The notes beneath the pieces are model-generated. The model had not been told where the DNA came from. It was given only the letters and a program-made list of their open reading frames with translations, and did not search any database. Shown here piece by piece: positions 1,371 to 33,965 of a stretch of DNA of 64,000 nucleotides (position 1 is the stretch's first letter; every line of letters starts with the position of its first letter). Origin of the DNA: Sulfurovum sp. (lineage in GTDB: Bacteria > Campylobacterota > Campylobacteria > Campylobacterales > Sulfurovaceae); assembly GCF_015493435.1 (NCBI RefSeq), contig NZ_WGDD01000032.1:26-64025 (forward strand), written 5' to 3'. Made by a program: the position numbers and the translations under genes.

Positions 1371-1384
1371 AAATCCTCCAAATG

Positions 1385-2380: not shown

Positions 2381-2557
2381 ACGCATCCCTTATGCTTTTT
2401 ATGCTAAAATGCGACCAGTCGCATCAGTAATCCCAAGAATACTTTCTGCGAACGCCTGCTGCCGGAATAAACCCGGTATTAGCGTTATTTTTTTGGGTTT
2501 TACCCAAAAAATGTCACATTAAATAGTATATTATTTTACAGTAAGTGAGGTTAGCAT

Positions 2558-3127: not shown

Positions 3128-3135
3128 AACAAAAC

Positions 3136-3477: not shown

Positions 3478-3486
3478 GCAGGACGC

Positions 3487-3822
3487 TTAAAAAGCAAACA
3501 CATCCTCGTACCGTGATCCCTCAAGCAAAGAAAGTGCAATGAAGAGCGCAAGGGTGACTGCCGGTGAAAAAATCACCCACCAGTAATATTTGCCTCTGAA
3601 CAGATAATACAGCAGCCCACCCCACGCAAAGACCACCAATATGACATGCGCCAAAAAAAGAGGAATGATCTGCCGGGTAATATTGCCCATAATCCCAAAA
3701 GAAATGAGCAACACAAATGTACCCAGTGCTATCAAAAGTTTTTTCAGATCCCTGTTGCGGTAATAAAGAAAAAAGATGAGCCCAAATGTTGCAAGGATAC
3801 CCACTACTATCAGTGCCTTCAT
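3487..3822 (-). CDS. Hypothetical small multi-pass membrane protein
   Basis: About four hydrophobic segments in 111 aa; co-oriented just downstream of argS. Confidence 0.75.
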   Translation of the reverse strand: MKALIVVGILATFGLIFFLYYRNRDLKKLLIALGTFVLLISFGIMGNITRQIIPLFLAHVILVVFAWGGLLYYLFRGKYYWWVIFSPAVTLALFIALSLLEGSRYEDVFAF

Positions 3823-3835
3823 ATCAATATCTCCT

Positions 3836-5533: not shown

Positions 5534-5710
5534 AATAACCGTTTCCGTAAATAGTGTGGGATAGTATTACTGTACCAAGTATATACCTAAATGTTTGGTA
5601 CGGTAATAGATGAATGTGTGAGGAACACATTATGTAGAATATTCTGAACACTCAACGTGCCCGGCCAAAAGGACACATGCCTCTGGCTTATTGAACGTTC
5701 AGCACTTGAT

Positions 5711-17103: not shown

Positions 17104-18638
17104 TACTTAACCTCCCCTCTGTTTAGTGTTGTTTTAGAAACTTTGATCATATCTTTTGCCTCTTGGGTGATCGCTTTGGCATCCATAAATGCCAACATTG
17201 CCTTCACAGAATTATCAATCGGCGCAAGTACCGGTTTGGGGTAAACCCCAAGCCAGACAACGATAAGAACCAAAGGTACCAGAGACCATGTCTCTTTACT
17301 GCTTAAATCTTTAAGTGTTTTATTGGCTTCATTGGTCACCGGCCCGAAGAAACTCTTTTTAAACAACGTGAGCATATAGATCGCCCCGATGATAATGGAT
17401 GTACCTGCAAGAGCAGTCAATACCGGTGATACATGATAGAATCCGAGCAGAACCAGGAATTCACCGACAAATCCGATCGTTAGCGGCAAGCCGACGGAAG
17501 CCATCAGCATAATACCGAAGATCACGGCATACTTTGGCATCACCGATGCCAATCCGCCGAATTCACTCATCAGCTTTGTATGTCTTCTGTCATAGATCAC
17601 GCCGACAAGCATAAATAATGCACCCGACACGATACCGTGTGAGAGCATCTGGAAAACAGAACCACTGATACCTTCGGCATTCATGGCAAAAATACCGAGC
17701 ATGATAATACCCATATGAGACACAGATGAATACGCAATAACCTGTTTCATATCTTTCTGTGCATAGGCGACCATTGCTGTATAGATGATCATTACAATGG
17801 AAAGCGCAGCGATCGGCATGATTGCCATGACAGAGGCATCAGGGAACATGGGAAGTGAGAATCTTACGAAACCGTATGTACCCATTTTCAACAGGACTGC
17901 TGCAAGAATGACGGAACCGATGGTAGGTGCCTGACCGTGTGCATACGGCAGCCAGGTATGGAACGGGAACATCGGAACCTTGATCGCAAAACCGACGAAG
18001 AAGGCAGCAAAGAGCCAAAGCTGATAATTGACCGGAAGCACCAGTGCATACCAGTCTGTAATAGCAAAACTCCATACCCCGGTAAGATTATGGTAAACAT
18101 AGGCTACGAACAGCATACCTACCAGCATGATCAGGGACCCCGTAAAGGTATACAGGAAGAACTTCACAGCCGCATAAACTCTGAGCGGTCCGCCCCATGC
18201 ACCGATAATATAAAGCATCGGCACAAGCGAAAGTTCCCAGAAAAGGTAGAAGATAATCGCATCAAGGGAAACAAAGACCCCTACCATTGTCATTTCAAGG
18301 AAAAGCAATGTGATGATCATATTTTTGATATTCTCTGTAATACTCATACTCATCATACCGATCAGCGTCATCAATGTCGCCATCAGAATAATGAAGAGAG
18401 AAATACCGTCTACACCAAGATAATAACTGATACCAAAATCAGGAATGATAGGAATCAGTTCGACAAACTGCATTCCTGCATTTGCCGTATCAAAACTGAA
18501 CCACAGCCAGACAGAGAGAAGAAACTCGATCGCTGCTACAGTAATACCGTAGGCACGTGCACTCTCTTTATCTACAACAAATCCCAACAATCCAGCGATT
18601 GCAGGAAAAAACACCAATATACTTAAAATATTTTCCAT
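17103..18638 (-). CDS. nuoM: NADH-quinone oxidoreductase subunit M
   Basis: LGVDGISL, FWELSLVPM, KVPMFPFHTWLP.AH, LLKMGTYG. Confidence 0.96.
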   Translation of the reverse strand: MENILSILVFFPAIAGLLGFVVDKESARAYGITVAAIEFLLSVWLWFSFDTANAGMQFVELIPIIPDFGISYYLGVDGISLFIILMATLMTLIGMMSMSITENIKNMIITLLFLEMTMVGVFVSLDAIIFYLFWELSLVPMLYIIGAWGGPLRVYAAVKFFLYTFTGSLIMLVGMLFVAYVYHNLTGVWSFAITDWYALVLPVNYQLWLFAAFFVGFAIKVPMFPFHTWLPYAHGQAPTIGSVILAAVLLKMGTYGFVRFSLPMFPDASVMAIMPIAALSIVMIIYTAMVAYAQKDMKQVIAYSSVSHMGIIMLGIFAMNAEGISGSVFQMLSHGIVSGALFMLVGVIYDRRHTKLMSEFGGLASVMPKYAVIFGIMLMASVGLPLTIGFVGEFLVLLGFYHVSPVLTALAGTSIIIGAIYMLTLFKKSFFGPVTNEANKTLKDLSSKETWSLVPLVLIVVWLGVYPKPVLAPIDNSVKAMLAFMDAKAITQEAKDMIKVSKTTLNRGEVK

Positions 18639-18649
18639 CTATCTTCTCC

Positions 18650-20548
18650 TTACACAAACATCGCTGAAATGACTGCGATAACCAATAGGAATACAGAACC
18701 CACAGCCATCCAATTCAGATAGTTGGACAGGTTACCTGTCTGCATCTTTCTTGAAGCATCCCCGCTCTTATAGAGGAATTTGGCAATGCCGTCAACGGTT
18801 GCATCTACAATTTTCATATCTACATCTTTCCACATCATTTCCGAGAGCATCGCATACGGCTTTGTAATGATTGCTTCATACAGATTTGGAATATAGTACT
18901 GATTTGCCAAAAGTTTGTATGTGAAACTGTTCTCCAGTTTCTTGTCTCTTTTGAGTCCCTTATAGTACTTTCTGTATGCCAGTACAATACCGCCTACCGC
19001 AAAGGCAAGGACAATCAGTCCCAGCATCATTGAAAGATGGTGTGTATGCTCACTCATATGGTAGTCTGGCAGCAGCTTGGTTACAAAGTGCTCAAACGTA
19101 CCCTGTGCAAAACCGGCTATCACTGCAAGTATTGCCAACGGTGACATTGCAATAAGAACATATTTATACATTTCATGCGGATGAATACCGAATGCTTTGT
19201 ATCTTTCGTCCCCTTCGAAAGTAAGGAAGACCTGTCTGAAGCTGTAGAATGCAGTCATACCTGCCGTCACGACAAGGATAACCCATAGAAACAATGTTCC
19301 TTCATTGAAGGCCGTTTCGATGATGGCATCTTTGGAGAAGAAACCTGCAAACGGAGGAATTCCTGCCAAAGCCAGGGAAGCGACTCCCATATAGATATAA
19401 GTCCACTTCATCGCTTTTTTCAATCCACCCATTTTGAAAATGTCAAGTTCATCATGCATTGCATGCATCACGTTACCTGCACCCAGGAAGAGCAGTGCTT
19501 TGAAGAAAGCGTGTGCCGCGAGGTGGAAAAGTGCGATCCAGTAAGCTCCCAGACCTGCCGCCGCAAACATATATCCCAGCTGAGAAAGTGTCGAGAAAGC
19601 GATAATACGCTTCAAGTCTCTGTTGACCAGTGCCATGGATGCCGCAAAGAAAGCGACAAAGGTACCCAGGGCCGCAATAAAATAGCTTACCTCCGGCGTC
19701 ATGGAAAAGAGCGGATTCGCTCTGATCACAAGGAATACACCGGCAGTTACCATGGTGGCCGCATGGATCAATGCAGAAACCGGCGTCGGGCCTTCCATTG
19801 CATCTGTCAGCCAGGTATGGAGCGGGAACTGTGCCGATTTACCCATTGCTCCGATAAAGAGTGCGATCGCTGCCGCATTCAGTACCGAGCCGCTCAAATC
19901 AGGAAGTGCCGCGAACACCACATCATACTGCAGACTGCCAACATTCCAGTAAAGGATGAAAAGTCCGATCAGCATTCCAAGGTCAGCGATACGGTTCATA
20001 ATAAATGCTTCATTCGCTGCCCAGGATGGAGAAATAGAGGGATTCTCTTCTCTGGATACATCTTCTTTGTGATACCAGAAACCGATCAGAAGCCATGAAC
20101 AGACCCCCACACCTTCCCATCCGATGAAAAGTCCGGCAAAGTTATCTGACATAACAAGGATCATCATCGAAAAAACGAAGGCTGACAGGTATGAGAAGAA
20201 TCGGTTGAAACTCTTATCATGGTCCATATATCCTATAGAATAAACATGAACCACTGTCGAAACAAGTGTGACAACGGTCATCATGGTCACGGAAACCTGA
20301 TCCACCACAAAACCGAACGGAATATGAAGATCACCTGCAGAGATCCAATCCATCATTGTAACATGTATGCCTGCCCCTGTGGTCCAGACATGAAATGCCA
20401 GCATAGCCGAAGCACAGAACGATGCAAAAAGCAGCAGAGACGCTACAATACCTACAAATGTTTGTTTTGGACTCATTCCGAACAAAGCTGCGAACAGCGA
20501 ACTCGCAAACGGAGCAAACAGTGCTATATATACTAAAGTTTCCATCAT
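18650..20548 (-). CDS. nuoL: NADH-quinone oxidoreductase subunit L
   Basis: GWEGVG, GKSAQFPLHTWL.DAMEGPTPVSALIHAATMVTAG, HAFFKALLFL. Confidence 0.97.
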   Translation of the reverse strand: MMETLVYIALFAPFASSLFAALFGMSPKQTFVGIVASLLLFASFCASAMLAFHVWTTGAGIHVTMMDWISAGDLHIPFGFVVDQVSVTMMTVVTLVSTVVHVYSIGYMDHDKSFNRFFSYLSAFVFSMMILVMSDNFAGLFIGWEGVGVCSWLLIGFWYHKEDVSREENPSISPSWAANEAFIMNRIADLGMLIGLFILYWNVGSLQYDVVFAALPDLSGSVLNAAAIALFIGAMGKSAQFPLHTWLTDAMEGPTPVSALIHAATMVTAGVFLVIRANPLFSMTPEVSYFIAALGTFVAFFAASMALVNRDLKRIIAFSTLSQLGYMFAAAGLGAYWIALFHLAAHAFFKALLFLGAGNVMHAMHDELDIFKMGGLKKAMKWTYIYMGVASLALAGIPPFAGFFSKDAIIETAFNEGTLFLWVILVVTAGMTAFYSFRQVFLTFEGDERYKAFGIHPHEMYKYVLIAMSPLAILAVIAGFAQGTFEHFVTKLLPDYHMSEHTHHLSMMLGLIVLAFAVGGIVLAYRKYYKGLKRDKKLENSFTYKLLANQYYIPNLYEAIITKPYAMLSEMMWKDVDMKIVDATVDGIAKFLYKSGDASRKMQTGNLSNYLNWMAVGSVFLLVIAVISAMFV

Positions 20549-20850
20549 TACCCCTTCATATTTGCAAGATCATCAAGATCGAGACTACCGTGTTTTTTAT
20601 ACAATACGATCAGTATACCCAGACCAACGGCCACTTCACTCGCAGCGATCGCGATAATAAAGAATGCAAACATTTGACCCGTAAGATCATTATAGTAGTG
20701 TGAAATCGCTGCAAATGCGATATTGACCGCATTGAGCATCACTTCCGTTGCGAAGAAAAGCATTAAAAGATTTCTTCTTCTCAATACACCCATCAACCCG
20801 ATAGAGAAGATCAGTGCTGAGATGACAAGATAGTGAGTTAAACCTATCAT
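20548..20850 (-). CDS. nuoK: NADH-quinone oxidoreductase subunit K
   Basis: EVMLNAVN, AASEVAVGL; position in operon. Confidence 0.96.
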   Translation of the reverse strand: MIGLTHYLVISALIFSIGLMGVLRRRNLLMLFFATEVMLNAVNIAFAAISHYYNDLTGQMFAFFIIAIAASEVAVGLGILIVLYKKHGSLDLDDLANMKG

Positions 20851-21410
20851 TTTACATCCTTTTTTATCAAGATTTCATCATCTACACAAGTGTCCTTGGT
20901 GAGACTCTGATCCATTTTCTTACCGGCAAGGATAATCCCTGAGATCATCGCTACCAATAACATAACCGCTGCAACTTCAAACGGGATAAGATACTTGGTA
21001 AAGAGTACGATACCGACATCCTGTGCATTCCCGACACCTTCATGCATCGGATAAAGCGCCTGGATCGATTCATTGTAGATCGGTGCAGCGAACATCAGTA
21101 CCAATGACAGGGCGCTCAAACCGCCCAATACAAAGATCAAGGCAGGATTGGTATTTTTTTCTTTGATCGATTTGGTTGAATCAAAGAACATCATTGCAAA
21201 CGAATAAAGTGCCATAATGGCACCGACATATACAATGAGCTGAACCACACCAAGGAAATCTGCCCCCAGAATAAAGAAAAAGCCTGAGATCAGCACCATC
21301 CCTGCAGCAAGCGATGTCATGGCATACAAGACATTCTTGCTAAAGACCGTGATGAGGAAAAGTCCTATTGTTAAAGCCGAAAATAGGTAAAAGGCTATTG
21401 TTTCATACAT
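20847..21410 (-). CDS. nuoJ: NADH-quinone oxidoreductase subunit J
   Basis: QLIVYVGAIMAL, YLIPFEVAAVMLLVA. Confidence 0.95.
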   Translation of the reverse strand: MYETIAFYLFSALTIGLFLITVFSKNVLYAMTSLAAGMVLISGFFFILGADFLGVVQLIVYVGAIMALYSFAMMFFDSTKSIKEKNTNPALIFVLGGLSALSLVLMFAAPIYNESIQALYPMHEGVGNAQDVGIVLFTKYLIPFEVAAVMLLVAMISGIILAGKKMDQSLTKDTCVDDEILIKKDVK

Positions 21411-21421
21411 ATCTGCTCCTC

Positions 21422-22045
21422 CTAATACGCTAATGGCGTTTTTTTGATATTTTCATCAGCATTCGGTGAGACAGCGCCAAATCCGTCATATTCCTGCTGA
21501 AGGTTGAGTTTGTCGATCGGTGTCAACATATCTTCAAAAAGTGAGAAACTCGCTCTCTGCTCGGAAGCTGTTTCATATCTCGGTCCATGTACGATCGCCA
21601 GTTCCGGACATACTTCCGCACAATACCCGCAGAAGATACAGCGTCCGAAGTTGATCGTATATTCACTGACTTCTTTTCTCTGGTTTTCATCGTATCTTGT
21701 ATCCATTGTGATACAGTTTGAAATACAGATCTTTTCACACAATCCGCATCCGATACATCTGTAATGACCGCTTTCAAGCAGTCTGAGCATATCATGGATC
21801 GCTCTGTATCTCGGAGAGATCGGCAGTTTTTCAAACGGATATTTTACTGTATGCATCTGTCCTTTGAACAGTGCATTGATCATTTCCCGCATTGTGACCC
21901 AAAGTCCTACAAGCAGTTCGCCCTTGAACGTCCTGTCTAAGACCTGCTTGAACTTACCCATGCCTGTTTCGGGACTCTGCCCAAGATCAAGCATCTTATA
22001 GTTCTGTGTACCTACATTTCTATTTTTAAATTGTTCTAAACCCAT
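21422..22045 (-). CDS. nuoI: NADH-quinone oxidoreductase subunit I
   Basis: CIGCGLCEKIC and CIFCGYCAEVCP; YPFEK. Confidence 0.96.
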   Translation of the reverse strand: MGLEQFKNRNVGTQNYKMLDLGQSPETGMGKFKQVLDRTFKGELLVGLWVTMREMINALFKGQMHTVKYPFEKLPISPRYRAIHDMLRLLESGHYRCIGCGLCEKICISNCITMDTRYDENQRKEVSEYTINFGRCIFCGYCAEVCPELAIVHGPRYETASEQRASFSLFEDMLTPIDKLNLQQEYDGFGAVSPNADENIKKTPLAY

Positions 22046-22054
22046 ACCTGCTCC

Positions 22055-23086
22055 TTACACCATCATCACAATACCTGTGATCACTATATTGATCACAGCT
22101 ATCGGCATCAATACTTTCCAGCACAGCCACATCAACTGATCCGGTCTCACATGCGGCCATGCTGCTCTGACCCATAGCATCAGGAAGAAAAAGAACCCTA
22201 CCTTCAGAATGATCGTCAGCCAACCTATACCCACTTCGCTGTAACCACCGAGGAAAACAACTGCCGCAATGATAGAAATAGTGATCATATTGGCATATTC
22301 ACCAATAAAGAACATACCCCATCTCATACCCGAATACTCTGTTGCATATCCGGAAACCACTTCCGCTTCATGCTCAAGGAGGTCGAACGGTGTCCTGTTC
22401 GTCTCGGCAAACCCTGCAATAAGGAAGAGTACGAACGCAACCGGCTGCTGCCAGATAAGCCAGTGGCTGATGCCGCCTGCCTGTGCGTTATTGAAGTCAA
22501 CGAAAGAAAGTGAACCTACCAGCATGATCGGAGCCAGGATGGAAAGACCTGTCACTACTTCATAACTCAAAAACTGGATTGCCGTTCTTGCCGCACCGAT
22601 AATACCCCATTTGTTCGCCTGTGCCATACCTGCAAGCAAAGGACCATAAAGTCCTGCCGCCATCATTCCCAGCACAAAGAGAATCCCGATATTCAGGTCT
22701 GCCGCAATAGAAGGTACAAAAACACCTCCAAGCAAAGGCACCCACTCAGGAATGGTAAAGTCCGGGAATACCGGTACTGCAGCCAGCGCAATAAAGGCTG
22801 TTGCTGCCGTAATGGAGGGTGCGATCTTGAAGATAAGGGAGTTTGCATTCTGGGGGACAATATCTTCTTTGGTAAAAAGTTTGATACCATCCGCCACAAG
22901 CTGAAGCAAACCGTAGGGACCTACGTGCATAGGTCCGAGTCTTCTCTGCATGAATGCCAGTACCTTTCTTTCAATAAAAGTACCGAAACCGGCGATCGCC
23001 GCGATCACTGCCAGAATAAGGATGGCTTTAATGATAACACCGGCCGCCGTCACTTCCGGTAAATTTTGTACGAGTGTTGTTTCCAT
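22055..23086 (-). CDS. nuoH: NADH-quinone oxidoreductase subunit H
   Basis: ERKVLAFMQRRLGP, ADGIKLFTKE, ETNRTPFDL.E.E.E.V.G, EYSG. Confidence 0.97.
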   Translation of the reverse strand: METTLVQNLPEVTAAGVIIKAILILAVIAAIAGFGTFIERKVLAFMQRRLGPMHVGPYGLLQLVADGIKLFTKEDIVPQNANSLIFKIAPSITAATAFIALAAVPVFPDFTIPEWVPLLGGVFVPSIAADLNIGILFVLGMMAAGLYGPLLAGMAQANKWGIIGAARTAIQFLSYEVVTGLSILAPIMLVGSLSFVDFNNAQAGGISHWLIWQQPVAFVLFLIAGFAETNRTPFDLLEHEAEVVSGYATEYSGMRWGMFFIGEYANMITISIIAAVVFLGGYSEVGIGWLTIILKVGFFFFLMLWVRAAWPHVRPDQLMWLCWKVLMPIAVINIVITGIVMMV

Positions 23087-23087
23087 A

Positions 23088-25550
23088 TTACACCTTTCTC
23101 ATTGTTACTGTTTGATATCTGGCCGGGCCAAATAGCTCATACACGTTCTGAGCACTCTTGAAATCGGACAGTTTTGTGATATCACCGGTCATCTTCTCAT
23201 CCGCGATCACATCGACGACGATACTTCCATTCCCGAATACCACTTCCACTTTCTCTCCAAGCGCCTCAGCTTTCTCGGCACTGGCATACAGACCGAACGG
23301 TTCAAATATCTCATGTGCCTTGTCCGAGAAGTCGGAAAACTGTCTGGCCGGGTTGCACCGGTACACGATCTCGCCTTCCAGTGCTGCATGCTCATCGAAC
23401 TTCTCTACAGAAGGTGTTTTAGCCTTTCTGTTGGATGTTTTCAACAAATAACCCCTGTTCTCCGTACCGTCGTTGCTGTAACCGTTCGGCAATGCATCGA
23501 ACTCTATGGCACGGAAGCCCTTTGAAGCAGGCAGCCTGACAGTCCAGTCAACGGTCAGGCTTTCCCCTTCCTCAATGAGTTCCGAGACAAGGTCATTCAG
23601 CTCATATCCGCCGTATTCGACAGCGGCATTGGTCGGTACCACTCTCTTGGAAATATTGGTGAAGGTCCCTTCCTGCTGGTTCATCGCCGGCATATCCAAG
23701 TCTCCGTCACCCAGTGCGGAGAGTCTGAAATCGCCGATCTCGTTATATCCGATCGTATAGCCTTCGGCTTCATCATCAAGATCACAGATCAGCGCTACAC
23801 CGAGCGCATTGGCTTTTGGCGGAGCCATTACGACATCGATCTCGGAAGTCTCTTCGATCAGGGCAATGAGTTTCGCCAGGTTCTCCGCTTTGTCATGATA
23901 ATAGAAATCTTCACCGATCATCATGGAGAAGGATTCTTTTTTCTTCATCATTTTCTCAAAGGTATCTGTAAAAGTAGAAGAATTGCCGCCAAGCAGGTCT
24001 ACCAGACCGTTCTTCTCGACCGTGATCTCTTTGTCTACCATTTCAGGGACTTTCTTGGTCACTTCTTTGCTCTCGCCTGTTTCCTCATCAACCACGGTTT
24101 CAGTCACATCCTTCATCACTTTCTCTTTGATCGTCTTCGTTTCGGTCGTTTTGAAACTTGCAAGATATTCTTTCACCTCTTCAGGCAGTTTCTCTTTGTC
24201 GGCAAAAAGATCGAGTACAAGGTAAAGGGCAGCCTCTTCCAGACCCGGTTTGTGGGTAAAACACTCCACATTTTTACCAAAGCTTGGAATGAGGGTATCG
24301 GCAATCGGATGAAAATAGAGTCCCGCCCCCTTGTTCAGCTTTTGAACATTGTTGAAGGCATACTTCATCCCCGGTGCATCATTTCTGAGTGCAGAGCCAA
24401 GGGCAATGACAAAGTCACTCTTTTTCATGATTGCATCGTTGTCCGTCGTCCAGAATCTATTGCCTGAAGCTTTTTGATAATAGCCGAGGAACTTCTGGAA
24501 AGCGCGTACTTCAGGATTATAAAGTTTCAATCCCCTCTTTTCCTTGAGCGTCTGGAGCATCAAGGCTTCTTCATTGGTGATCACAGAATTGAAACGTACG
24601 GTCTGCGCATTTTTGAATGCTTCCAGTGCTTTTGCGAATGCTGCTTCATCTTTTGTAACATCAGTATTTTCAAAATCATAGGCAAAACGTGCTGCACCGT
24701 CCAATGAAACATAGTTCCACTCATTGGTCACACGGAAGATCTTTTCATTTCTGTTCTCAATGGAAGCAGGTTTCACTTCGTAATAAATCTGGAAACCGTC
24801 CGAAGAATGTGCAGAAACTGCGGGAATCCTCTTGAGGTCCCACGCGTTTGATTTATACTGGAAATCTCTGCTGACCAGTGCACCTACCGGACAGACAGCC
24901 GCACATTCGCCACAGTCCGAACAGTTCGTATATTCTGTTCCGTTGCTTGGTGCGATGACAGATTTCTGCAGTTTGTTCCACATTGCATAGGCATCTTTCG
25001 GCATCGTTTCTTTAAAGCCTTTGTCAAGTGCCTCTCCGCCTCTTTTTACGGTAGTAAGTGCCGCATCTCCGATCATATCTTTACAGACGGTCGTACAACG
25101 TTCACATACGATACAGAGACCTGCATCGTAATGCAGTACGGAACTCCAGTTCTTGACCTCTCTTTTGGTATCCGGAATCATGTAGGACTGTGAATCCACA
25201 CCGAGTTCAAGCGTATAATTCTGAAGTTCGCACTCTCCGCTCTTGTCGCAGACGCCGCACTGAAGCGGGTGGTTCACGTCATAAACTTCCATGATCGCAC
25301 GACGCTCTTCAAGAATGTTGGGTGTATCGACCGTGATCTCCATACCCTCCTTGACTTTTGCGTTACATGCATATACCTGTTTTCCGTCGGCCTCTACCAG
25401 ACAAAGACGGCACGCCAGTGTTGGCGAACATCGTGTCAAATAACAGATCGCGGGAATAAAAATATCGTTGGCACGTGCGGCATTGAGGATATATTCACCC
25501 TCTTTGACCGCGACTTCCCTGCCATCGATTTTAATATTGACTGTACTCAT
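23088..25550 (-). CDS. nuoG: NADH-quinone oxidoreductase subunit G, Campylobacter type (extra 4Fe-4S motif, degenerate N7)
   Basis: CYL..CSPTLACRLC, HPLQCGVCDKSGEC.LQ, CIVCERC...C, CSDCGECAAVCP; start set at MSTVNI. Confidence 0.93.
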   Translation of the reverse strand: MSTVNIKIDGREVAVKEGEYILNAARANDIFIPAICYLTRCSPTLACRLCLVEADGKQVYACNAKVKEGMEITVDTPNILEERRAIMEVYDVNHPLQCGVCDKSGECELQNYTLELGVDSQSYMIPDTKREVKNWSSVLHYDAGLCIVCERCTTVCKDMIGDAALTTVKRGGEALDKGFKETMPKDAYAMWNKLQKSVIAPSNGTEYTNCSDCGECAAVCPVGALVSRDFQYKSNAWDLKRIPAVSAHSSDGFQIYYEVKPASIENRNEKIFRVTNEWNYVSLDGAARFAYDFENTDVTKDEAAFAKALEAFKNAQTVRFNSVITNEEALMLQTLKEKRGLKLYNPEVRAFQKFLGYYQKASGNRFWTTDNDAIMKKSDFVIALGSALRNDAPGMKYAFNNVQKLNKGAGLYFHPIADTLIPSFGKNVECFTHKPGLEEAALYLVLDLFADKEKLPEEVKEYLASFKTTETKTIKEKVMKDVTETVVDEETGESKEVTKKVPEMVDKEITVEKNGLVDLLGGNSSTFTDTFEKMMKKKESFSMMIGEDFYYHDKAENLAKLIALIEETSEIDVVMAPPKANALGVALICDLDDEAEGYTIGYNEIGDFRLSALGDGDLDMPAMNQQEGTFTNISKRVVPTNAAVEYGGYELNDLVSELIEEGESLTVDWTVRLPASKGFRAIEFDALPNGYSNDGTENRGYLLKTSNRKAKTPSVEKFDEHAALEGEIVYRCNPARQFSDFSDKAHEIFEPFGLYASAEKAEALGEKVEVVFGNGSIVVDVIADEKMTGDITKLSDFKSAQNVYELFGPARYQTVTMRKV

Positions 25551-25551
25551 A

Positions 25552-27810
25552 TTAATTTCCTGCCCTTTCAAAATCTAACCTCTTAAATCTATAAGAGGAT
25601 ACCAAAGCTCCACTTAATCCCATGTCAAATGTCGGATTAAGGGCGATGGTTCCTTTCATGGTTGTGTCGATCTTAAACAGTCGATCGAAATCCACACCAT
25701 CGATAGCGAACGTGATACGGTCACCATCTTTCAGTCTGGTTGCCGTAGCGAACTGCTGTGAACCCAGAAGTACGGCTTCGTCTTCCAACAGGGATGACTT
25801 GGCTGTAAAAGCCGAGAACTGTTCGACAGGATCGCAGCGGTATACTACAGCTCCGTCATAGCCTTCGAGCTCTTCCACTTCGTCAAAATTTCTGCTGACA
25901 GAAACCTTTCGGGCCTTCAGCAGATAGCCTCTGTGCTCAGTGCCTACACTGTCAAAATAATCCGGAAGCGCATCGAATTCAATCGCTTCAAAACCCTTCT
26001 CTTCCGGCAGTATTTTCGTATATTCAATGGTATATTCCGCATCCATTCCCAAAACATTGGCGACATCATTCAAAACATAGCCCCCATACGGAAGGGCTGC
26101 ATTCATAGGTACGACACGCTTGTCCACTGTAGTAAGCGTACCCTCCTGCTGATTCATTGCCGGCATGTCAAGATCACCGCCGCCCAATGCGGAAAGGGTA
26201 AAGTCGGCAGGCATATTGTAACCGACCGTAGCACCTTCTGCTTCATCATCAAGATCACAGACGAGTGAAATACCCATGGCATTACCCGCTGGAGGGACAC
26301 AGACCACATTGAAACCGGCATACTGTTCAAGCAGTGCTGCCAGTTTCGCGATCTGCTCTGCTCTGGGATGGGCATAAAGGTCAGAGCCGACTACCAAAGA
26401 GAATCCGCTCTTCTTCAACAGAGATTTTCTCAGCGCTTCAAGCTCCTCTTCCCCTACATTGGTCTCGGCTGACAGATAGCCGATATCGAGATCATCCAGG
26501 AAAGAACGTACCGCTTTGGGCAATTCTGTTTCTTTAAGCAGTGTATCGGCCAGCAAAGCGGCCACACCCTCTTCGCTTCCCACTTCATATTTAATGAACT
26601 GTGTCACGATATTCTGTATCTCTTTGTCTTCGATCGGATGCATATAGGCGACTCTGGCCTGATGCCACTTGCTTGCCATATTGACATGATATTTCACCGC
26701 TGGTGCATCGTCATTGATTCGCGAACCGAAAATGATCACCGCTTTTGACTCGGAAATACGTTTAAGGGTACCGCCATAGAGATGTTTTCCGGTAATATTG
26801 CCGTAGGCCTGCATAAATTTCTGGTAGGCTCGCGCTTCGGGGGAGACCAGTTTGAAACCGAGCTTCTCTTTGAGTTTCTGAAGGATCAGCGCTTCTTCAT
26901 TCGAAGTCTGGTTCGACAGAAGGACCGTATCTGCTTTGTTGAAAGCTTCAACCGCTTTTGCAAAAGCCTCTTTGTCTTTTGTCACACCTTCATTGGCATA
27001 GTCAAAACCGAATCTGCCTGCGCCGCAGAGAGTACTGAATTCAAACTCGTTGGTCACACGGTAGATCCTGTCCTGCTTCACTTCGTAATACATCTGGCAT
27101 CCGCCGCCGCAATGCGGACAGGCACTCGGAATCTTCGTCAACTCCCAGGCATTGGCCGTGTATTTGAACTTCGTACTGACCAGTGCCCCGACAGGGCAGA
27201 CCGCTGCTGCTTCACCCAGAGAAGCGTAGTTCTTCTCTTTTTTGGTATTGACAATGGTTGATCCGTATCCGCCGAACTTGATCTTGAGCGCTTCATCCCC
27301 CGTGATCTCGGTCGAAACACGTACACACTTCTCACACATGATACAGAGTGCAGGGTCGTAGGAAACATGTCCCCAGTTCTCTACCGGCCTGTTCTGGTCT
27401 CTTGCCGTGAAGTCCTGTGCCTCGAGGTTGAACTCCATGGTCTTGTTCTGAAGGTCGCATTCCCCACTTTTGTCACAGACACCGCATTCGAGCGGATGGT
27501 TGACATTATAGAGCTTCATAATGCTCTGGCGTTCCTCAAAAAGGGCATCGCTGTCAGTAGTAATGACTGCGCCGTCCGTCGCTTTTTCCTGGCAGGAGAG
27601 GATCATCCCTTCCACACCTTCGACCTCTACCACACACATACGGCATGAACCTATCGGCTGGACCTTGGTCAAATAGCACATGGTCGGGACATAAATATCA
27701 TGCTCTCTGGCGATCTCCAGTATGGTTTTGCCAAAAGTACTTTTGAACTCCTGACCGTTAATGGTAACGCTGATCTCTTTCCCGGTATTCATAGAATTAT
27801 GTGCACTCAT
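25552..27810 (-). CDS. Second NuoG-like Fe-S subunit (N7 motif intact)
   Basis: GSCRMC, HPLECGVCDKSGEC.LQ, CIMCEKC, VCPVGAL, CPHCGGGC...LCGAGRF. Confidence 0.9.
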   Translation of the reverse strand: MSAHNSMNTGKEISVTINGQEFKSTFGKTILEIAREHDIYVPTMCYLTKVQPIGSCRMCVVEVEGVEGMILSCQEKATDGAVITTDSDALFEERQSIMKLYNVNHPLECGVCDKSGECDLQNKTMEFNLEAQDFTARDQNRPVENWGHVSYDPALCIMCEKCVRVSTEITGDEALKIKFGGYGSTIVNTKKEKNYASLGEAAAVCPVGALVSTKFKYTANAWELTKIPSACPHCGGGCQMYYEVKQDRIYRVTNEFEFSTLCGAGRFGFDYANEGVTKDKEAFAKAVEAFNKADTVLLSNQTSNEEALILQKLKEKLGFKLVSPEARAYQKFMQAYGNITGKHLYGGTLKRISESKAVIIFGSRINDDAPAVKYHVNMASKWHQARVAYMHPIEDKEIQNIVTQFIKYEVGSEEGVAALLADTLLKETELPKAVRSFLDDLDIGYLSAETNVGEEELEALRKSLLKKSGFSLVVGSDLYAHPRAEQIAKLAALLEQYAGFNVVCVPPAGNAMGISLVCDLDDEAEGATVGYNMPADFTLSALGGGDLDMPAMNQQEGTLTTVDKRVVPMNAALPYGGYVLNDVANVLGMDAEYTIEYTKILPEEKGFEAIEFDALPDYFDSVGTEHRGYLLKARKVSVSRNFDEVEELEGYDGAVVYRCDPVEQFSAFTAKSSLLEDEAVLLGSQQFATATRLKDGDRITFAIDGVDFDRLFKIDTTMKGTIALNPTFDMGLSGALVSSYRFKRLDFERAGN

Positions 27811-27811
27811 A

Positions 27812-29821
27812 TTACACCGCCACCATTGAAATATAGTAACATCGCATACATCTTTCCGCTTCTGCGATCGCTTCTTCGCCTGTAAATCCGAGATTGACTT
27901 CTTTGTTGTTGCTCTTTCTTTCGTCTACACCGAGTTTTTCACTTTCGGCTCTCGGAAGTCCCGGCATCCAGCCTGTGATCTTTTCCTTCTTGTCATACAC
28001 CCTGAGTTTGGCAAGATGGTCTTCCATGATCTCGTCATCTGTCAGGGTACATTTTCCGTCATAGATATAGCGGCTGATGACCGAAGCGGCACGCCGTGCC
28101 TGTCCCACTGCATTGACGATGGTCATAGGGCCGTACTCACAGTCACCCGCGGCAAAAAGCCCCGGACGGGAAGTCATGAAATCTTTTCCGTTCGTCAAAA
28201 TACTGTTCCAGGATGTCATTTCAAGATTCCATTCTTCAGGCAGAAGCTGTGTATCCAGTGCCTGGGAAACCGCCGGGATCAGGTAGTCACACTCGATCTC
28301 GAAGTCACCGCCTTCAATCTTGACAAGCTGTGCACGCCCGCCGTTAGGGTCCGGTACAAGCTCGAAACGGTTCACTTTGAGTTTCGTGATATTTTCACCG
28401 TCATCAAATATTTCTTCAATCGCAGAATGGAAGATAAATTCCACCCCCTCTTCGACTGCTTCATGATATTCTTCATAAGTCGTGTTGCGAATGATCGTTT
28501 TCTCATCACGGCGGTAGAGCATGATCACCTTCTTCGCGCCTTCACGAATGGAGCATCGGACGACATCCATCGAGGTAAACCCGCCGCCGACACAAACAAC
28601 AACTTTGTCTTTAAGTTCATTGGAAGCGGGTGACCCGATGTTGTATTTATGCCAGAGATTGACTTTGTCCAGCATATCGATCGCACCCCAGTAGCCGCCC
28701 ATTTTAGTGTTTTCGTTCTCAGCACGCACTTTTTTCGAAAGTCTCGCGCCAAATCCGAGCAGTGTCGCATCATATTCGGCATCGAGCTCCTTGAGACGCT
28801 CTGCATTCACTCTGTAATTATTGGTGATACTTACCGTCGGCATACTGAGTACCAGCTCAATGTCCTTGTTGTACTTGTCCACAGGCATTCTGTACTCAGG
28901 TACACCTACCGCGACTTCACCGCCATTGACAGGAAGTTCTTCAAAGATATCAACCTGTATTCCTTCGAGTGCCAGATAATATGCCGCGGTCAATCCTGCG
29001 GGACCTGCACCGACGATTGCCACTTTTTTGCCATCGTTTCTCGGAGGCTTCGGCGTTCGAGGATGCAGCCATTCAAGATCATGGTCCGTTTCATAGTCCG
29101 CACCAAGACGCTTCAGCTCCATAATAGAGATAGGTTCATCGAGGTTTGCACGCCGGCAAGCATCTTCACACGGATGGGGGCAGACACGCCCGCAGGTATG
29201 TGCCAGAGGCATGGTCTGTCTTGTCGCTGCCAAAGAATCGGTAAAGACCATATCTCTTACCCCTTCTATATAGGCGGGAATATCCACGTGTGCAGGGCAC
29301 ATATCTGTACACGGTGCAGTGACCTTGGCGATATAGTCCGTATTGCCGCCGTAATGCCTCGACGGGATCTGCAGTTCGATACAGGTATCGAACTGCGCTT
29401 CGTAATGTTCCATCAGATCAAGGATCGGTTTGGGGACTGTTTTCCCGATCTCGCATTTTGATGTAGCCATCATCGTTTTGCTGATCTCTTTAAGATGGGC
29501 TATGTCATCATGCGAACCTTCTCCTCTGGCGATCTTGTCAAGCAAATCGTACAGAATCCTGCCGCCCCATCTACCCGGTGCGCAGCGGCCGCAGGCTTCG
29601 GAATATTCCTGATACTGTGCCGCATACTTCGAAGCCAGTTCCACCGCATCGATATCTTCGTCAAAGATGGCAACACCATCCCAGCCGATGAACGCTTTGG
29701 AGTTCTTCTCCCCGTGATAGGTTTCAGGCAGTTTGAATTCGGACTGGCTCGACTCGTCAGAGGATTTACCGCGGTTGTCGATAAACTCGCCTCTCCAAGT
29801 TGAGAATACAATTCCAGACAT
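27812..29821 (-). CDS. Fe-S flavoprotein: NuoF-C-terminal-like domain fused to a GltD/SudA/NfnB-like oxidoreductase
   Basis: EACGRCAPGRWG...KCEIG; CTDMCPAH, CGRVCPHPCEDACRR; GAGPAG; GGGFTSMD...YRR; EAERCMRC. Confidence 0.88.
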   Translation of the reverse strand: MSGIVFSTWRGEFIDNRGKSSDESSQSEFKLPETYHGEKNSKAFIGWDGVAIFDEDIDAVELASKYAAQYQEYSEACGRCAPGRWGGRILYDLLDKIARGEGSHDDIAHLKEISKTMMATSKCEIGKTVPKPILDLMEHYEAQFDTCIELQIPSRHYGGNTDYIAKVTAPCTDMCPAHVDIPAYIEGVRDMVFTDSLAATRQTMPLAHTCGRVCPHPCEDACRRANLDEPISIMELKRLGADYETDHDLEWLHPRTPKPPRNDGKKVAIVGAGPAGLTAAYYLALEGIQVDIFEELPVNGGEVAVGVPEYRMPVDKYNKDIELVLSMPTVSITNNYRVNAERLKELDAEYDATLLGFGARLSKKVRAENENTKMGGYWGAIDMLDKVNLWHKYNIGSPASNELKDKVVVCVGGGFTSMDVVRCSIREGAKKVIMLYRRDEKTIIRNTTYEEYHEAVEEGVEFIFHSAIEEIFDDGENITKLKVNRFELVPDPNGGRAQLVKIEGGDFEIECDYLIPAVSQALDTQLLPEEWNLEMTSWNSILTNGKDFMTSRPGLFAAGDCEYGPMTIVNAVGQARRAASVISRYIYDGKCTLTDDEIMEDHLAKLRVYDKKEKITGWMPGLPRAESEKLGVDERKSNNKEVNLGFTGEEAIAEAERCMRCYYISMVAV

Positions 29822-30459
29822 TATTTAGCCTTTGGTTTTCTGGCAGTGTTTCTTCTGGCTGCAGATTTTTTTACAGGCTTTTTTGCGGGTGCCGGTTTTT
29901 CTGCTTTTGCAGCTGCTTCTTTGGCTGCAGCTTCCTCTGTCGCCTTTTTTTCCGCTTCGGCTTCTTCTGCCGCTGCTTTTTCTGCTTCAGCTTTGGCTTT
30001 AGCCTCTTCTTCCGCTTTTTTGGCTGCATCTTCCGCCGCTTTCTTTTCTGCTTCCGCTTTGGCAGCCGCTTCTTTGGCTTCCGCTTCCGCTGCTGCTTTT
30101 TCTGCTTCTTCTTTGGCTTTTGCCTCTTCGGCTGCTTTCAGTGCAGCGGCTTCTTCCGCCCCTTTGGCCGCTTTTTCTGCGGCCGCTTTGGCAGCAGCGA
30201 TTTTTTCGGCACGTTCTTTTCTTACTTCTTCATCCACTTTTTTGACGACGACCGTCCAGTCCACTTCATTGAACTTCAGTGAATTCATCAGATCATGCCC
30301 TGTTTCTTTAATGACATCGGCAGACTTTTGAATGGAAGAGAAATCTCCTACTTCGAAAAGGAAGATGCCTGCTTCTCCGACTTTCAGCCCGTTATCGATA
30401 AGTTCGACCATTCTGTCATAGAAATCGTCATGTAAATGTCTTAAATCATATCTTTTCAT
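29821..30459 (-). CDS. NuoX-like (Campylobacterota 'NuoE family') subunit with a long Ala/Lys/Glu-rich tail
   Basis: N-terminal ~75 aa MKRYDLR...LFEVGDFS...LMNSLKFNEVDWTVVVKK; sits directly after nuoD; AEK repeats. Confidence 0.8.
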   Translation of the reverse strand: MKRYDLRHLHDDFYDRMVELIDNGLKVGEAGIFLFEVGDFSSIQKSADVIKETGHDLMNSLKFNEVDWTVVVKKVDEEVRKERAEKIAAAKAAAEKAAKGAEEAAALKAAEEAKAKEEAEKAAAEAEAKEAAAKAEAEKKAAEDAAKKAEEEAKAKAEAEKAAAEEAEAEKKATEEAAAKEAAAKAEKPAPAKKPVKKSAARRNTARKPKAK

Positions 30460-30467
30460 AGTCTCTC

Positions 30468-31697
30468 CTATCTGTCAACTTCACCGAATACGATATTGGT
30501 AGAACCAATGATCGTAACGACGTCAGCAATATATGTTCCTACAAGAATTTCCTGCAGCAGTCCTGTATGGAAAAAACTCGGTGCTCTACACTTCAGTCTG
30601 TAAGCATACGGTTCACCTTCCGACTTAATATAGAAACCAAGCTCGCCTTTTGGTGACTCTGTCGGTACATAGACTTCACCTTTAGGCGGTCTCATACCCT
30701 GTGTGACCAGAACAAAGTGCTGCATCAACGCATAGTTCTGTGTCATGATCTCCTCTTTCGGAGCTGAAATGTACTGCGGAGCATGTGCCATCAGCTGAGG
30801 ATCGGATTCTTTGTACATCGGTACAAGCTGTCTCAAAATTCTCGTAGATTGTTTCATCTCTTCCATATAGAGTCTGTAGCGTCCGTAGGAATCACATCTG
30901 TTACTTACAGGAATGTCAAAGTCAAGTTCACCGTAAAGCTCATACGGTTCCTCTTTTCTGATATCCCAGTTGACACCGGAACCTCTGAGCATTGGTCCGG
31001 TACAGCCCCAGGAAAGCGCATCTTCTGCCGAGATAACCCCGACATCTTCCAGACGCATTTTCCAAATACGGTTTTCCTGAAGCAGAGCATTATAGGTATG
31101 CTCCAGCTCATGATCTACTTTATCACAGAATGAGATCATGTTAATGATCCAGTCTTTCGGGAGGTCAAGAGGCACTCCGCCGATACGTACAGATGAGTGG
31201 GTCAGTCTGGCACCGCAGTACTCTTCCATCAGGTCCATCGCATATTCACGTTCACGGAAAGCATACAGAAATACGGACATAGCACCGACATCGAGGGCAT
31301 GGGTTGCAATAAAGAAAAGGTGTGAGATGACTCTGTTCAATTCAAGCAGCATCGTTCTGATCACCTGTGCACGTCTTGGTGCTTCAATACCAAGCAGTTT
31401 CTCTACAGCCAGGGCATAGGCATAGTTGTTTGAAGTAGACGCGATATAGTCAAGTCTGTCCGTCGTTGGCAAAAACTCATTATAAGTCATGTTCTCTGCC
31501 ATTTTTTCGATACCTCTGTGAAGGTAACCAATATCCGGATAGGCTTTAACGACCTGTTCACCATCCAGTTCAAGAACCAGTCTTAACTGACCGTGCGCAG
31601 AAGGGTGCTGCGGACCGAAGTTGATGACCATCGTATTGTCATCTCTCTCAAAATTGAGGTTTTCAAAAAACGGGGTTAGTTTATTGGGTTGTTGCAT
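30468..31697 (-). CDS. nuoD: NADH-quinone oxidoreductase subunit D
   Basis: [37 protein letters not shown]. Confidence 0.97.
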
Positions 31698-31705
31698 CTT
31701 CTTCC

Positions 31706-32491
31706 CTACCTTCTCTCATCTAATTGCTTGGATGAATTTTTATTGTAATCCACAAGGATCGTTTCACTGTATTCGATTGGCTGCTCTTTCTCTCCTTCGG
31801 AGATATCGGCACCGAACGGTACTTCGTATCCGACTCTGGAGAAACGCTTCGTATCGTATCTGTCAATACGCGCAGGGTCTCTGTTTTCCGGCCCGATCAC
31901 ATCTCTGTACTCTTTGCCGAAGATCTTGTCGACTTCATACCATGAAGCGAATTCATCGCCATGCAGCGGATAGGTTTTCAAAAGCGGGTGTCCTTCCCAG
32001 TCATCCGGCATAAGAATACGCTTGAGGAAAGGATGGTTGTTAACCTTGATACCGAACATATCGAACATTTCACGCTCAGCAAAGTTCGCCGATCTGAAGA
32101 GCGGTTCGATGCTTTCGATCGCTTCCTTTTCTTTGATGCGTGTCACTACTCTGACTCTTTTGGCTTCGGTAATGTTGAGCAGCTGCCAGAACAGTTCGAA
32201 CTCTCCGTCCTGTGCAAGATAGTCCACGGCGGACTGCTCGGAACACTGCGTATAGCCGCACTCTTCTTTAAGGGTTTTCATGACATCAAAATTATCTGTT
32301 GATTTTATGTGTATGACAAGCTGACCGACAGAGACATAGGACTCTTTGGCTTTTCTGCCCAATGCTTTGACGACATCGGCAAAATGGCTTCCTGCCTCTA
32401 CTTCTGTCTGCGGCACACGCGGCGCGACCCAGTATCTGTCCGTATAATAGGACTTTTTCTGTACATTGTCTTTGGGAGTATATTTTCTCAT
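31706..32491 (-). CDS. nuoC: NADH-quinone oxidoreductase subunit C
   Basis: [29 protein letters not shown]. Confidence 0.95.
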
Positions 32492-33009
32492 TACACCAAC
32501 CTCAAATTCTGTTTTGTATTGTTATTCATATTGGCAGACTCTCTTCTGATCTTCTTTTGAAGCATCATCAACGCATACTGAAGCGTCTCCGGTCTCGGTG
32601 CACAGCCCGGAAGGTAAATATCTACCGGTATGATCCTGTCAACCCCCTGCACTGTCGCATACGTATTGAACATACCGCCGGTATTGGCACAGGACCCCAT
32701 GGAGATAACCCACTTGGGCTCTGTCATCTGGTCATAAAGTCTTCTCGCGAACTCAGAGTGTTTTTTGGAAAGTGTTCCCGCAAGGATCATGACGTCCGCC
32801 TGTCTCGGGGAAGCCCTGAAGATCGTACCCATACGGTCGAAGTCGTAGCGTGATGCACCCGATGCCATCATTTCGATCGCACAACATGCGAGCCCGTATG
32901 TCAGTGGCCAGAGCGAGTTCGAACGCCCCCAGTTTACCAATTTGTCTACCGACGTCAATGCTATCGGCAAGCCTGCTGCTGAGGCATAATTTACTTGATG
33001 CTGTGCCAT
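32491..33009 (-). CDS. nuoB: NADH-quinone oxidoreductase subunit B
   Basis: [33 protein letters not shown]. Confidence 0.97.
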
Positions 33010-33380
33010 TCAAGTGCTCCTTTCTTCCATGCATATACAAAACCGATCGCGAGTAATACGATAAAGAGTATCATCTCCGCAAATCCGAACCAGCCAAGCA
33101 GTTTAAAGTCGATCGCCCACGGGAACATAAAGATGATCTCCACATCGAAGAGGATGAAAAGAAGTGCGATCAGATAGAACTGCGCCGAGATCGTGTTTGG
33201 CTGTTTAGTGACTTCCGGGCCACATTCGTAGATGGTAAGCTTGAGCTTTTCCGTATCAAGTTTGGCCAGTTTTCTACTGACAATACGTGCCAGTGCGAGT
33301 GTTGCAGGAAATGCAACGGCTGTCAAAGCAAATAAAACAAAGACACCGAAATACGGGTGTTCTGTAATTACATGAGTCAT
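32991..33380 (-). CDS. nuoA: NADH-quinone oxidoreductase subunit A
   Basis: [29 protein letters not shown]. Confidence 0.96.
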
Positions 33381-33563: not shown

Positions 33564-33965
33564 ATGAAAAAGACCAATATTCTCTACTGGATCGCAATGG
33601 CAGGCGTGCTTTTTTACATTGCCTATACTAAAGGCTGGATCCTTGCACCCTTTGAATCGATCAGTCCCAAACAGGCTGCTCTACTCATAGAGAAAGGTGA
33701 CAATGTTTCGCTTTTGGATGTCAGAACCATCCCGGAATACAAAAGCGGTCACATCAGAGGTGCCCAACTCATCCCGCTGGGCCAGCTTGAGAGCAACCTT
33801 GACAAGCTCAAAACCGACAAAAACAAAAAGATCATCGTCTACTGCCGCAGCGGAAGCCGCAGCGTTGCAGCTTCACGCATTTTGGAAAAGCACGGTTTTG
33901 TACCGCTCAATGTAAAACAGGGGATGATCGGCCTGCGGGGGACCGACCTGGAGATCGTGAAGTGA
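33564..33965 (+). CDS. Rhodanese-like domain protein with an N-terminal membrane anchor
   Basis: LLDVRT..EY..GHI.GA, YCRSGSRS. Confidence 0.9.
   Translation: MKKTNILYWIAMAGVLFYIAYTKGWILAPFESISPKQAALLIEKGDNVSLLDVRTIPEYKSGHIRGAQLIPLGQLESNLDKLKTDKNKKIIVYCRSGSRSVAASRILEKHGFVPLNVKQGMIGLRGTDLEIVK

Follow-up and report, generated by a model that had tools for sequence, protein, structure and literature searches.

Non-canonical NuoE and NuoF proteins and two copies of NuoG have been described in complex I of Sulfurimonas denitrificans and other chemoautotrophic Campylobacterota, including Sulfurovum (McNichol and Sievert, bioRxiv 10.1101/717884), and a passage of that preprint credits the two-NuoG observation to Weerakoon and Olson 2008. 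In S. denitrificans, Suden_1822 encodes the long NuoG, Suden_1823 a short NuoG with two regions missing, and Suden_1824 an NfnB-like protein; both NuoG copies are transcribed at similar levels, and reverse electron flow with bifurcation was proposed, with the extra cluster of the short NuoG as a possible site (bioRxiv 10.1101/717884). In the flavodoxin-dependent complex I of Campylobacter jejuni and Helicobacter pylori, NuoX (Cj1575c) and NuoY (Cj1574c) replace NuoE and NuoF. The NuoG of Aquifex aeolicus (PDB 7q5y) has an eight-cysteine arrangement that binds an additional [4Fe-4S] cluster, and in the NuoG of E. coli and of Thermus the N7 cluster lies off the pathway, is required for stability and has often been lost in evolution. 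StnC of the Sporomusa ovata StnABC complex (PDB 8oh5) is a [2Fe-2S]-GltD-NuoG fusion in which electrons from NADPH pass via NuoG-like clusters, and its two FdhF-like side-branch clusters are electron-transfer remnants that are still needed for assembly (PMC10482914). Here, we analyzed a stretch of 64,000 nucleotides from Sulfurovum sp. (contig NZ_WGDD01000032.1; the whole stretch is called the window), which carries a complex I (nuo) operon with a short and a long nuoG gene in tandem.

The open reading frame (ORF) list and its translations show that the nuo operon consists of 15 genes on the minus strand, running from 33380 down to 15613. X is used throughout as the label for the extra second ferredoxin-type cluster.

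30468..33380, minus strand: nuoA, nuoB, nuoC and nuoD, from ORFs and translations, with orthologs in 80 loci
29821..30459, minus strand: NuoE-slot protein of 212 amino acids, NuoX-type PF16514 domain (3.4e-38) with an Ala/Glu/Lys-rich tail
27812..29821, minus strand: NuoF-slot protein of 669 amino acids, a NuoF C-terminal 4Fe-4S domain fused to a GltD/NfnB-like FAD/NADPH module
25552..27810, minus strand: short NuoG of 752 amino acids, with N1b, N5, N4 and N7 and no second ferredoxin cluster
23088..25550, minus strand: long NuoG of 820 amino acids, with N1b, N5, N4 and X, N7 ligands lost
15613..23086, minus strand: nuoH, nuoI, nuoJ, nuoK, nuoL, nuoM and nuoN, from the ORF sizes and order of a nuo operon, with nuoH and nuoI orthologs in related loci

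This is a non-canonical complex I operon of a Sulfurovum species (Campylobacterota) of the published type, and both the two-NuoG layout and the tandem arrangement were known before this analysis. A PF16514 protein and an NfnB/GltD-like flavoprotein replace NuoE and NuoF and are followed by the short and then the long NuoG, both encoded inside the operon between the NuoF slot and nuoH. The published complex I of S. denitrificans and Sulfurovum has the same layout, with a short/long pair, two insertions in the long copy and an NfnB/GltD-like protein in the NuoF slot. However, the published S. denitrificans-type short copy is said to keep the extra-cluster cysteines, whereas the short copies of the window and of most Sulfurovum lack all four, and, unlike the published description, the long copy has no N7 in the Sulfurovum subclade to which the window belongs. 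The best homologs are Sulfurovum proteins (76-92% identical), which places the host within the Sulfurovum/Sulfurimonas group, and the closest loci are from Sulfurovum metagenome-assembled genomes and Sulfurovum sp. CS9. For comparison, one genome per species was scanned, which gave 80 loci from Sulfurovum, other Sulfurovaceae, Nitratifractor and Hydrogenimonas; the gene order ABCD-E-F-Gshort-Glong-HI was found in all 80, as far as the contigs reach. An earlier, sequence-only reading of the two NuoGs had taken their complementary cluster inventories as the mark of subfunctionalised subunits that may form a longer or branched electron wire, one docking the flavoprotein and the other flavodoxin/ferredoxin or the NuoBCDI core. 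We consider it probable instead that the long NuoG is the core wire, that the short NuoG and the flavoprotein make up an NADP(H) side arm, and that the inventories result from separate losses.

The ligands of each cluster were located in both proteins. In the short NuoG, N1b has C45, C56, C59 and C73, N5 has H105, C109, C112 and C118, N4 has C156, C159, C162 and C205 (followed by proline), and N7 has C231, C234, C238 and C262; the four X-ligand positions hold S166, Y195, L198 and A201, so that X is absent. The long NuoG has intact N1b and N5 sites, two complete CxxCxxCxxxC(P) motifs and none of the four N7 cysteines. The segments concerned are:

27313..27345, minus strand: first ferredoxin motif of the short NuoG, CIMCEKCVRVS, with three N4 ligands; the fourth cysteine, an X ligand, is Ser166
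27193..27228, minus strand: degenerate second motif of the short NuoG, YASLGEAAAVCP, whose sole remaining ligand is the N4 cysteine C205
27016..27120, minus strand: N7 site of the short NuoG, CPHCGGGC ... LCGAG
25083..25115, minus strand: first motif of the long NuoG, CIVCERCTTVC, with four cysteines (153-163 in the numbering of the 827-amino-acid ORF)
24888..24923, minus strand: second motif of the long NuoG, CSDCGECAAVCP, with four cysteines (217-228 in the same numbering)
24684..24815, minus strand: degenerate N7 region of the long NuoG, SAHSSDGF ... LDGAARF, with S, S, F and D at the ligand positions

The two motifs of the long NuoG are together predicted to bind N4 plus X. No ligand of N1b (four cysteines), N5 (HxxxCxxCxxxxxC) or N4 (CxxCxxC...CP) is missing from either paralog, and none of them varies among the roughly 80 orthologs of each. 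As a description, the sequence-only reading was accurate: both ORFs, their strand and every motif it quoted were confirmed, as were the N7 site without a second ferredoxin-type cluster in the 752-residue protein, the two full motifs with a cysteine-free N7 region in the long one, and the N1b and N5 sites in both. One correction concerns the single ferredoxin-type cluster, which is canonical for NuoG and not a loss peculiar to the short protein; the HMMER alignment shows the same CxxCxxCxxxS ... CP pattern in the Mycobacterium NuoG (8e9g_G). All eight cysteines of the double ferredoxin motif are found by alignment in the Aquifex NuoG (7q5y_A), and X of the long NuoG is the cluster known from that protein. 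The Aquifex NuoG, which is also the best PDB sequence match of both paralogs, shares the eight-cysteine motif with the long NuoG, but it keeps N7, has a normal NuoEF partner and is present as a single copy in the structure.

We found that the long NuoG has the features expected of the core subunit. In the tree of representatives, the long NuoGs and the sole NuoG of Helicobacter sp. MIT 11-5569, H. cetorum and Sulfurospirillum form one clade (support of 99 in the SH-aLRT, the Shimodaira-Hasegawa-like approximate likelihood-ratio test). The members of this clade also share an insertion:

24948..25013, minus strand: conserved long-type insertion KETMPKDAYAMWNKLQKSVIAP between the two ferredoxin motifs

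The insertion has 22 residues and is strongly conserved (K-E-x-M-P-K-D-A-Y-x-M-W-N-K..., core segment KETMPKDAYAMWNKLQKSVI); every long or sole NuoG carries it, that of Helicobacter cetorum among them, and the short-type and outgroup proteins lack it. Given its orthology to the single NuoG of Helicobacter and Sulfurospirillum and the signature insertion that the two share, the long NuoG should be the core electron-wire subunit, at the canonical site beside NuoI, and should dock the NuoBCDI core. A second long-type insertion (window 24006-24134) is charged and about 45 residues long, and the AlphaFold2 (AF2) model shows it as a long two-stranded beta-hairpin arm. Judging from the models, either insertion could be a docking element.

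The short NuoG was found to be tied to the GltD-like flavoprotein. Wherever a full-length short NuoG has upstream sequence, it follows a GltD-like gene, in about 70 informative loci and in a distant Campylobacterales contig (L087). In 4 of 4 operons without the GltD-like gene, the short NuoG is N-terminally truncated and lacks N1b, N5 and N4. The search with representatives gave truncated homologs of 446-524 amino acids, which align from residues ~225-290 of the short NuoG onward and are each nearer to the short than to the long NuoG. The four verified cases, of 478-524 amino acids and some with N7 cysteines, each lie between the PF16514 gene and the long NuoG:

L081:8001-9488, truncated short NuoG
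L082:8001-9437, truncated short NuoG
L088:237-1811, truncated short NuoG
L089:1313-2860, truncated short NuoG

The contigs were checked, and no GltD-like gene is in the operon of any of the four. Another candidate for the truncated form, P0151, was rejected as a contig-end fragment of a long NuoG. One of the four lies inside the Sulfurovum short-NuoG clade, beside the window, and the long NuoG of L082 has the same N7-less SSFD state as that of the window with X intact; truncation seems to have taken place on several occasions, one of them within Sulfurovum. The short NuoG would therefore gain and lose its Fe-S half as a unit with the flavoprotein, while the C-terminal body stays. Since this Fe-S half is present only with the GltD-like gene and absent in the four operons without it, it probably forms the NADP(H) branch. 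The same direction is indicated by natural fusions of a NuoG N-terminus with GltD, namely StnC and the PRK12814 profile, whose first ~100 positions align to the NuoG N-terminus and the remainder to the F-slot protein. StnC resembles the arrangement in the window in that a NuoG-like Fe-S chain serves as the wiring of a GltD-type NADPH/FAD module, but it is a soluble single-polypeptide fusion on a bifurcating HydBC-type module, whereas the window encodes separate proteins in the operon of a membrane complex I. Taken together, the docking suggested by the sequence-only reading stands in outline only, with the long NuoG on the NuoBCDI core and the Fe-S half of the short NuoG strictly accompanying the GltD-like gene, the co-occurrence that had been put forward as a check.

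The proteins in the NuoE and NuoF slots differ from their canonical counterparts. Residues 1-74 of the NuoE-slot protein match Pfam PF16514 ('putative NADH-UOR chain E', NuoX type), and a NuoX-type protein in this slot is shared with the complex I of C. jejuni and H. pylori. The remaining tail of ~135 residues is low-complexity and its length is very variable, with products of ~75 to 275 amino acids in relatives. The NuoF-slot protein matches Pfam PF10589, PF14691 (Fer4_20) and PF07992 (Pyr_redox_2), as well as NF009410/NF009454, and of NuoF it retains only the C-terminal 4Fe-4S domain (PF10589). The Pfam scan found neither an FMN-binding NuoF domain nor a NuoE-type subunit, and the locus does not belong with the Bfu-type enzymes (HydABC, NfnABC, StnABC). 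An invariant CxxC (658, 661) lies at the C-terminus of the flavoprotein.

Cluster states in the relatives were taken from a joint alignment of both paralogs, and losses were counted on trees made without the trait columns. Among 81 short NuoG sequences, X is present in 31 and lost in 50 (34 related loci share SYLA at the X positions), and N7 is CCCC in 73 and CCHC in 8. In the long NuoG, X is CCCC in 78 of 78 informative orthologs, and N7 is intact in 55 and lost in 21. N1b, N5 and N4 are always kept in both paralogs, and in the long NuoG these three and X are invariant in every context examined. In the 75 genomes informative for both proteins, all five clusters are present in both paralogs in 30, X is lost from the short NuoG alone in 25, and loss of X from the short and of N7 from the long occur together in 20 (the window and 19 relatives); the reverse combination, a short NuoG with X and a long one without N7, was found in 0 of the 75. 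The complete state occurs in Hydrogenimonas, Nitratifractor and deep Sulfurovaceae, and the more distant representatives of the family almost all have X and N7. Loss of X from the short NuoG requires 1-2 events, and so does loss of N7 from the long NuoG within Sulfurovum, with a separate independent loss in the Sulfurospirillum-type NuoG. The concatenated tree needs at least 3 changes for N7, one of them an implausible regain; when the tree is built from long NuoGs only and the N7 region is left out, all N7-less proteins except L037 fall into a single clade. Many parallel losses of N7 were rejected, since the long-only tree gives 1-2 losses plus some exchange between lineages. An independent-pairs test of correlated evolution of the two losses found one informative pair only.

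These counts suggest that the short NuoG lost X early in Sulfurovum and that the long NuoG lost N7 later, in a subclade. Because the losses are few, nested and shared only by a Sulfurovum subclade, the complementary pattern is derived, the sum of a few historical losses and not a property of the two-NuoG system. The sequence-only reading had itself named motif losses that are not conserved in orthologs as evidence against it, and the losses are not conserved outside this subclade. Of its claim of subfunctionalised subunits, what remains is that the two NuoGs are non-equivalent and have different partners; the inventories do not define the division, given the genomes that are complete in both and the 1-2 events per loss. 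By analogy, X and N7 may form a side branch off N4, and losing either in a lineage would be tolerable trimming, since N7 is off-pathway in E. coli. The off-pathway position of N7 and its repeated loss in evolution agree with its absence from the long NuoG of the window and from Sulfurospirillum, but in the window operon a second NuoG is present that always keeps N7. Two recent, separate side-branch losses would thus have produced the complementary inventories with no built-in partition, and the complementary variant is probably near-neutral. The CCHC form of the short NuoG, in which the third N7 ligand is His for Cys, is confined to one Sulfurovum subclade (L018, L024, L025, L027, L028, L030, L035 and L044). 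Two of these, L025 and L028, have a short NuoG in the CCHC clade and a long NuoG in the N7-less clade, which suggests that part of the operon was exchanged between Sulfurovum lineages.

Both NuoG genes appear to be functional. The two proteins are 42% identical across their full length and pass the NF006305 / PRK08493 model of the Campylobacterota NuoG (curated cut-off of 591 bits for NF006305) with 1069.9 bits for the long protein over its full length and 845.2 bits for the short one. The general NuoG model TIGR01973 (curated cut-off of 470 bits) is not reached by either (long 167 bits, short 239 bits), and both are divergent members of the NuoG family and not canonical equivalogs. The short NuoG has Pfam matches to Fer2_4, NADH-G_4Fe-4S_3, Fer4_Nqo3, Molybdop_Fe4S4 and Molybdopterin. 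An ATG at 25550, with AGGA in front, lies 1 nucleotide past the stop of the short NuoG gene; for this reason the long NuoG most likely starts there (820 amino acids), a TTG at 25571 (827-residue ORF) being less likely, and the two genes are predicted to be translationally coupled. The ratio of nonsynonymous to synonymous substitution (dN/dS) is ~0.06 for the short and ~0.045 for the long NuoG, which indicates purifying selection; these values are limited to the closest pairs, as saturation of dS affects most of the pairs compared. In all 80 related loci, both paralogs are intact. The AF2 models of both give full-length matches to the alpha subunits of NAD-dependent formate dehydrogenase (FdsA) and to NuoG chains (TMq of 0.69-0.73 for the short and about 0.5 for the long), with a molybdopterin-oxidoreductase-like C-terminal body in each; the N-terminal Fe-S domains are of low confidence in both monomer models. 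The conclusion that both genes work rests on their intactness in relatives, the dN/dS of at most 0.06, the 1-nucleotide gap and the full NuoG/FdsA folds.

In the mechanism that we propose, the long NuoG would occupy the normal NuoG position and feed NuoI, NuoB and the quinone site. The short NuoG would be an old paralog. Its C-terminal body would be a permanent structural component of complex I in Campylobacterota, while its N-terminal Fe-S chain (N1b, N4, N5) and the GltD/NfnB-like protein of the NuoF slot would together make up a side arm linked to NADP(H). Electrons would pass from NADP(H) through FAD and two GltD-type clusters to the NuoF-type domain, from there over N1b, N4 and N5 of the short NuoG to the chain of the long NuoG, and finally through NuoI and NuoB to menaquinone. 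The long NuoG would carry a separate site for ferredoxin or flavodoxin, as is the case in C. jejuni. In a sulfur oxidiser that fixes CO2, the side arm probably runs in reverse, so that NADPH would be made from quinol and the proton-motive force. The scheme builds on observed orthology, gene order, co-occurrence and co-loss, motif states and purifying selection.

Several points weigh against it. That the two NuoGs assemble into a single complex, how electrons cross from one to the other and which way they flow are inferred, and the association of the two is seen at the gene level only; searches of the PDB by sequence and by structure returned no solved Campylobacterota complex I, and none of the RNA-seq runs searched contains the locus. 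For the joint loss of the GltD-like gene and the Fe-S half, the evidence consists of four truncated operons that were verified. In the NuoF-type 4Fe-4S domain of the flavoprotein, three cysteines are invariant (77, 80 and 123) and the third canonical cysteine is replaced by glycine, which makes the bridging cluster of this domain uncertain; the C-terminal CxxC might supply the missing ligand. In addition, N7 is never lost among the 81 short NuoGs and X is never lost in the long NuoG, an asymmetry that may be meaningful and is compatible with real specialisation.

The bifurcating or confurcating hub of McNichol and Sievert, in which a reversed complex I co-reduces NADP+ and ferredoxin and branches at the extra cluster of the short NuoG beside N7, is the strongest of the alternatives, but we regard it as unlikely. 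An NfnB-like flavoprotein does stand in place of NuoF, the reductive tricarboxylic acid (rTCA) cycle requires both reductants, and the invariant extra cluster of the long NuoG could serve a ferredoxin or flavodoxin site. However, because the proposed branch cluster is absent from the short NuoG of the window and of 50 of the 81 relatives, it cannot be a general requirement; the FMN-binding NuoF domain and NuoE-type subunit of the Bfu enzymes are missing, and the homologous GltD domain of StnC does not bifurcate.

The adaptive partition, in which the complementary clusters give rise to a longer or branched wire that depends on precisely this pairing, is less probable still, and we regard it as improbable. 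Its case consists of the two losses co-occurring in the window and 19 related genomes, the empty reverse class, and the one-sided retention of N7 by the short and X by the long NuoG. Against these stand the 30 genomes with all five sites in both paralogs and the 25 in which only the short NuoG has lost X, and with 1-2 events per loss the nesting carries no statistical weight. Moreover, L082 combines an N7-less long NuoG with a short NuoG that has no Fe-S domain. Both of the clusters that were lost are also part of a side branch, which lies off the electron pathway in E. coli and is a remnant in StnC. Least credible, and very improbable in our judgment, is that the two NuoGs are interchangeable isoforms that serve separate complex I populations or come into use under different growth conditions: neither protein lacks any part of the N1b-N4-N5 chain or of the NuoG fold, but their genes are adjacent in one operon with a 1-nucleotide gap, the S. 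denitrificans pair is transcribed at similar levels, and relics unable to carry electrons persist beside the long NuoG in many lineages, including Helicobacter.

The side-arm reading, in which the short NuoG keeps a structural role alongside the long one, is in line with these relics, which are retained next to the long NuoG although they do not transfer electrons. In Helicobacter-type operons there is no GltD-like flavoprotein, and the second NuoG has shrunk to 260-330 amino acids without Fe-S sites; the long NuoG is orthologous to the sole NuoG of the C. jejuni/H. pylori enzyme. The proteins in the NuoY slot of two Helicobacter species and Sulfurospirillum match window 25552-26790 and nearby:

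L085:4548-5390, NuoY-slot protein
L086:5222-6004, NuoY-slot protein
L091:2006-3004, NuoY-slot protein

The comparison covers these three, and Campylobacter is included by synteny only, no named locus of that genus having been found among the representatives. The proteins have 280 (Helicobacter sp.), 332 (H. cetorum) and 260 (Sulfurospirillum) amino acids. BLASTP of two of them against the short NuoG gave E values of 5e-19 and 1e-24 over residues ~341-524 and 633-731. A hidden Markov model (HMM) of the short NuoG matched all three (1.7e-31, 1e-22 and 1.9e-51, respectively), whereas the HMM of the long NuoG gave 8.7e-8 for Helicobacter sp., no match for H. cetorum and 2e-9 for Sulfurospirillum. 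Their sole NCBIfam match was NF006305, below its cut-off. Because of these HMM and BLASTP matches, together with the 446-524-residue intermediates in NuoX-NuoY-NuoG operons, homology is strongly supported, and NuoY of Helicobacter-type operons would be a reduced descendant of the short NuoG. No statement linking NuoY to NuoG was found in the literature searched, a search that did not extend to the primary paper of Weerakoon and Olson 2008. More tentatively, and at slightly less than an even chance in our estimate, every Campylobacterota complex I may be built on a two-NuoG scaffold, with NuoY as the degenerate second NuoG body and the full-length form as the ancestral state, a three-way hub between quinone, NADP(H) and ferredoxin or flavodoxin; the hub function of that ancestor is itself inferred.

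Two further genes adjoin the operon. Directly upstream of nuoA and on the same strand lies a gene for an AAA+ ATPase of ~580 amino acids with a winged-helix domain, which also occurs upstream of nuoA in Sulfurovum-like contigs and in Sulfurospirillum (L081:2902-4638, the start of L082, and L086:207-1940) and is absent there in the Helicobacter locus. This protein might be a conserved partner or assembly factor of complex I. A rhodanese-domain gene adjoins the nuo promoter region, and a rhodanese gene is also found beside nuoA in L082-L084.

34106-35857, minus strand: AAA+ ATPase with a winged-helix domain
33564-33965, plus strand: rhodanese-domain protein

The sequence of the locus is present in DNA metagenomes from hydrothermal vents and in no other run type.

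Chemoautotrophic Campylobacterota dominate carbon fixation at vents and in sulfidic redoxclines, and the two-NuoG complex I is the main candidate for the source of the NADPH and reduced ferredoxin that their rTCA cycle uses. The results narrow the models for this enzyme: the long NuoG would be the core wire, the Fe-S half of the short NuoG would belong with the NADPH flavoprotein, and the reciprocal losses would amount to a side branch being trimmed in evolution. In most Sulfurovum the short NuoG lacks the extra cluster that had been proposed as a bifurcation site, so this cluster would not be generally required. Beyond the chemoautotrophs, NuoY, an essential and unexplained subunit of Helicobacter-type enzymes, would be tied to a NuoG ancestor, which offers a structural hypothesis for a subunit of the respiratory chain of these pathogens.

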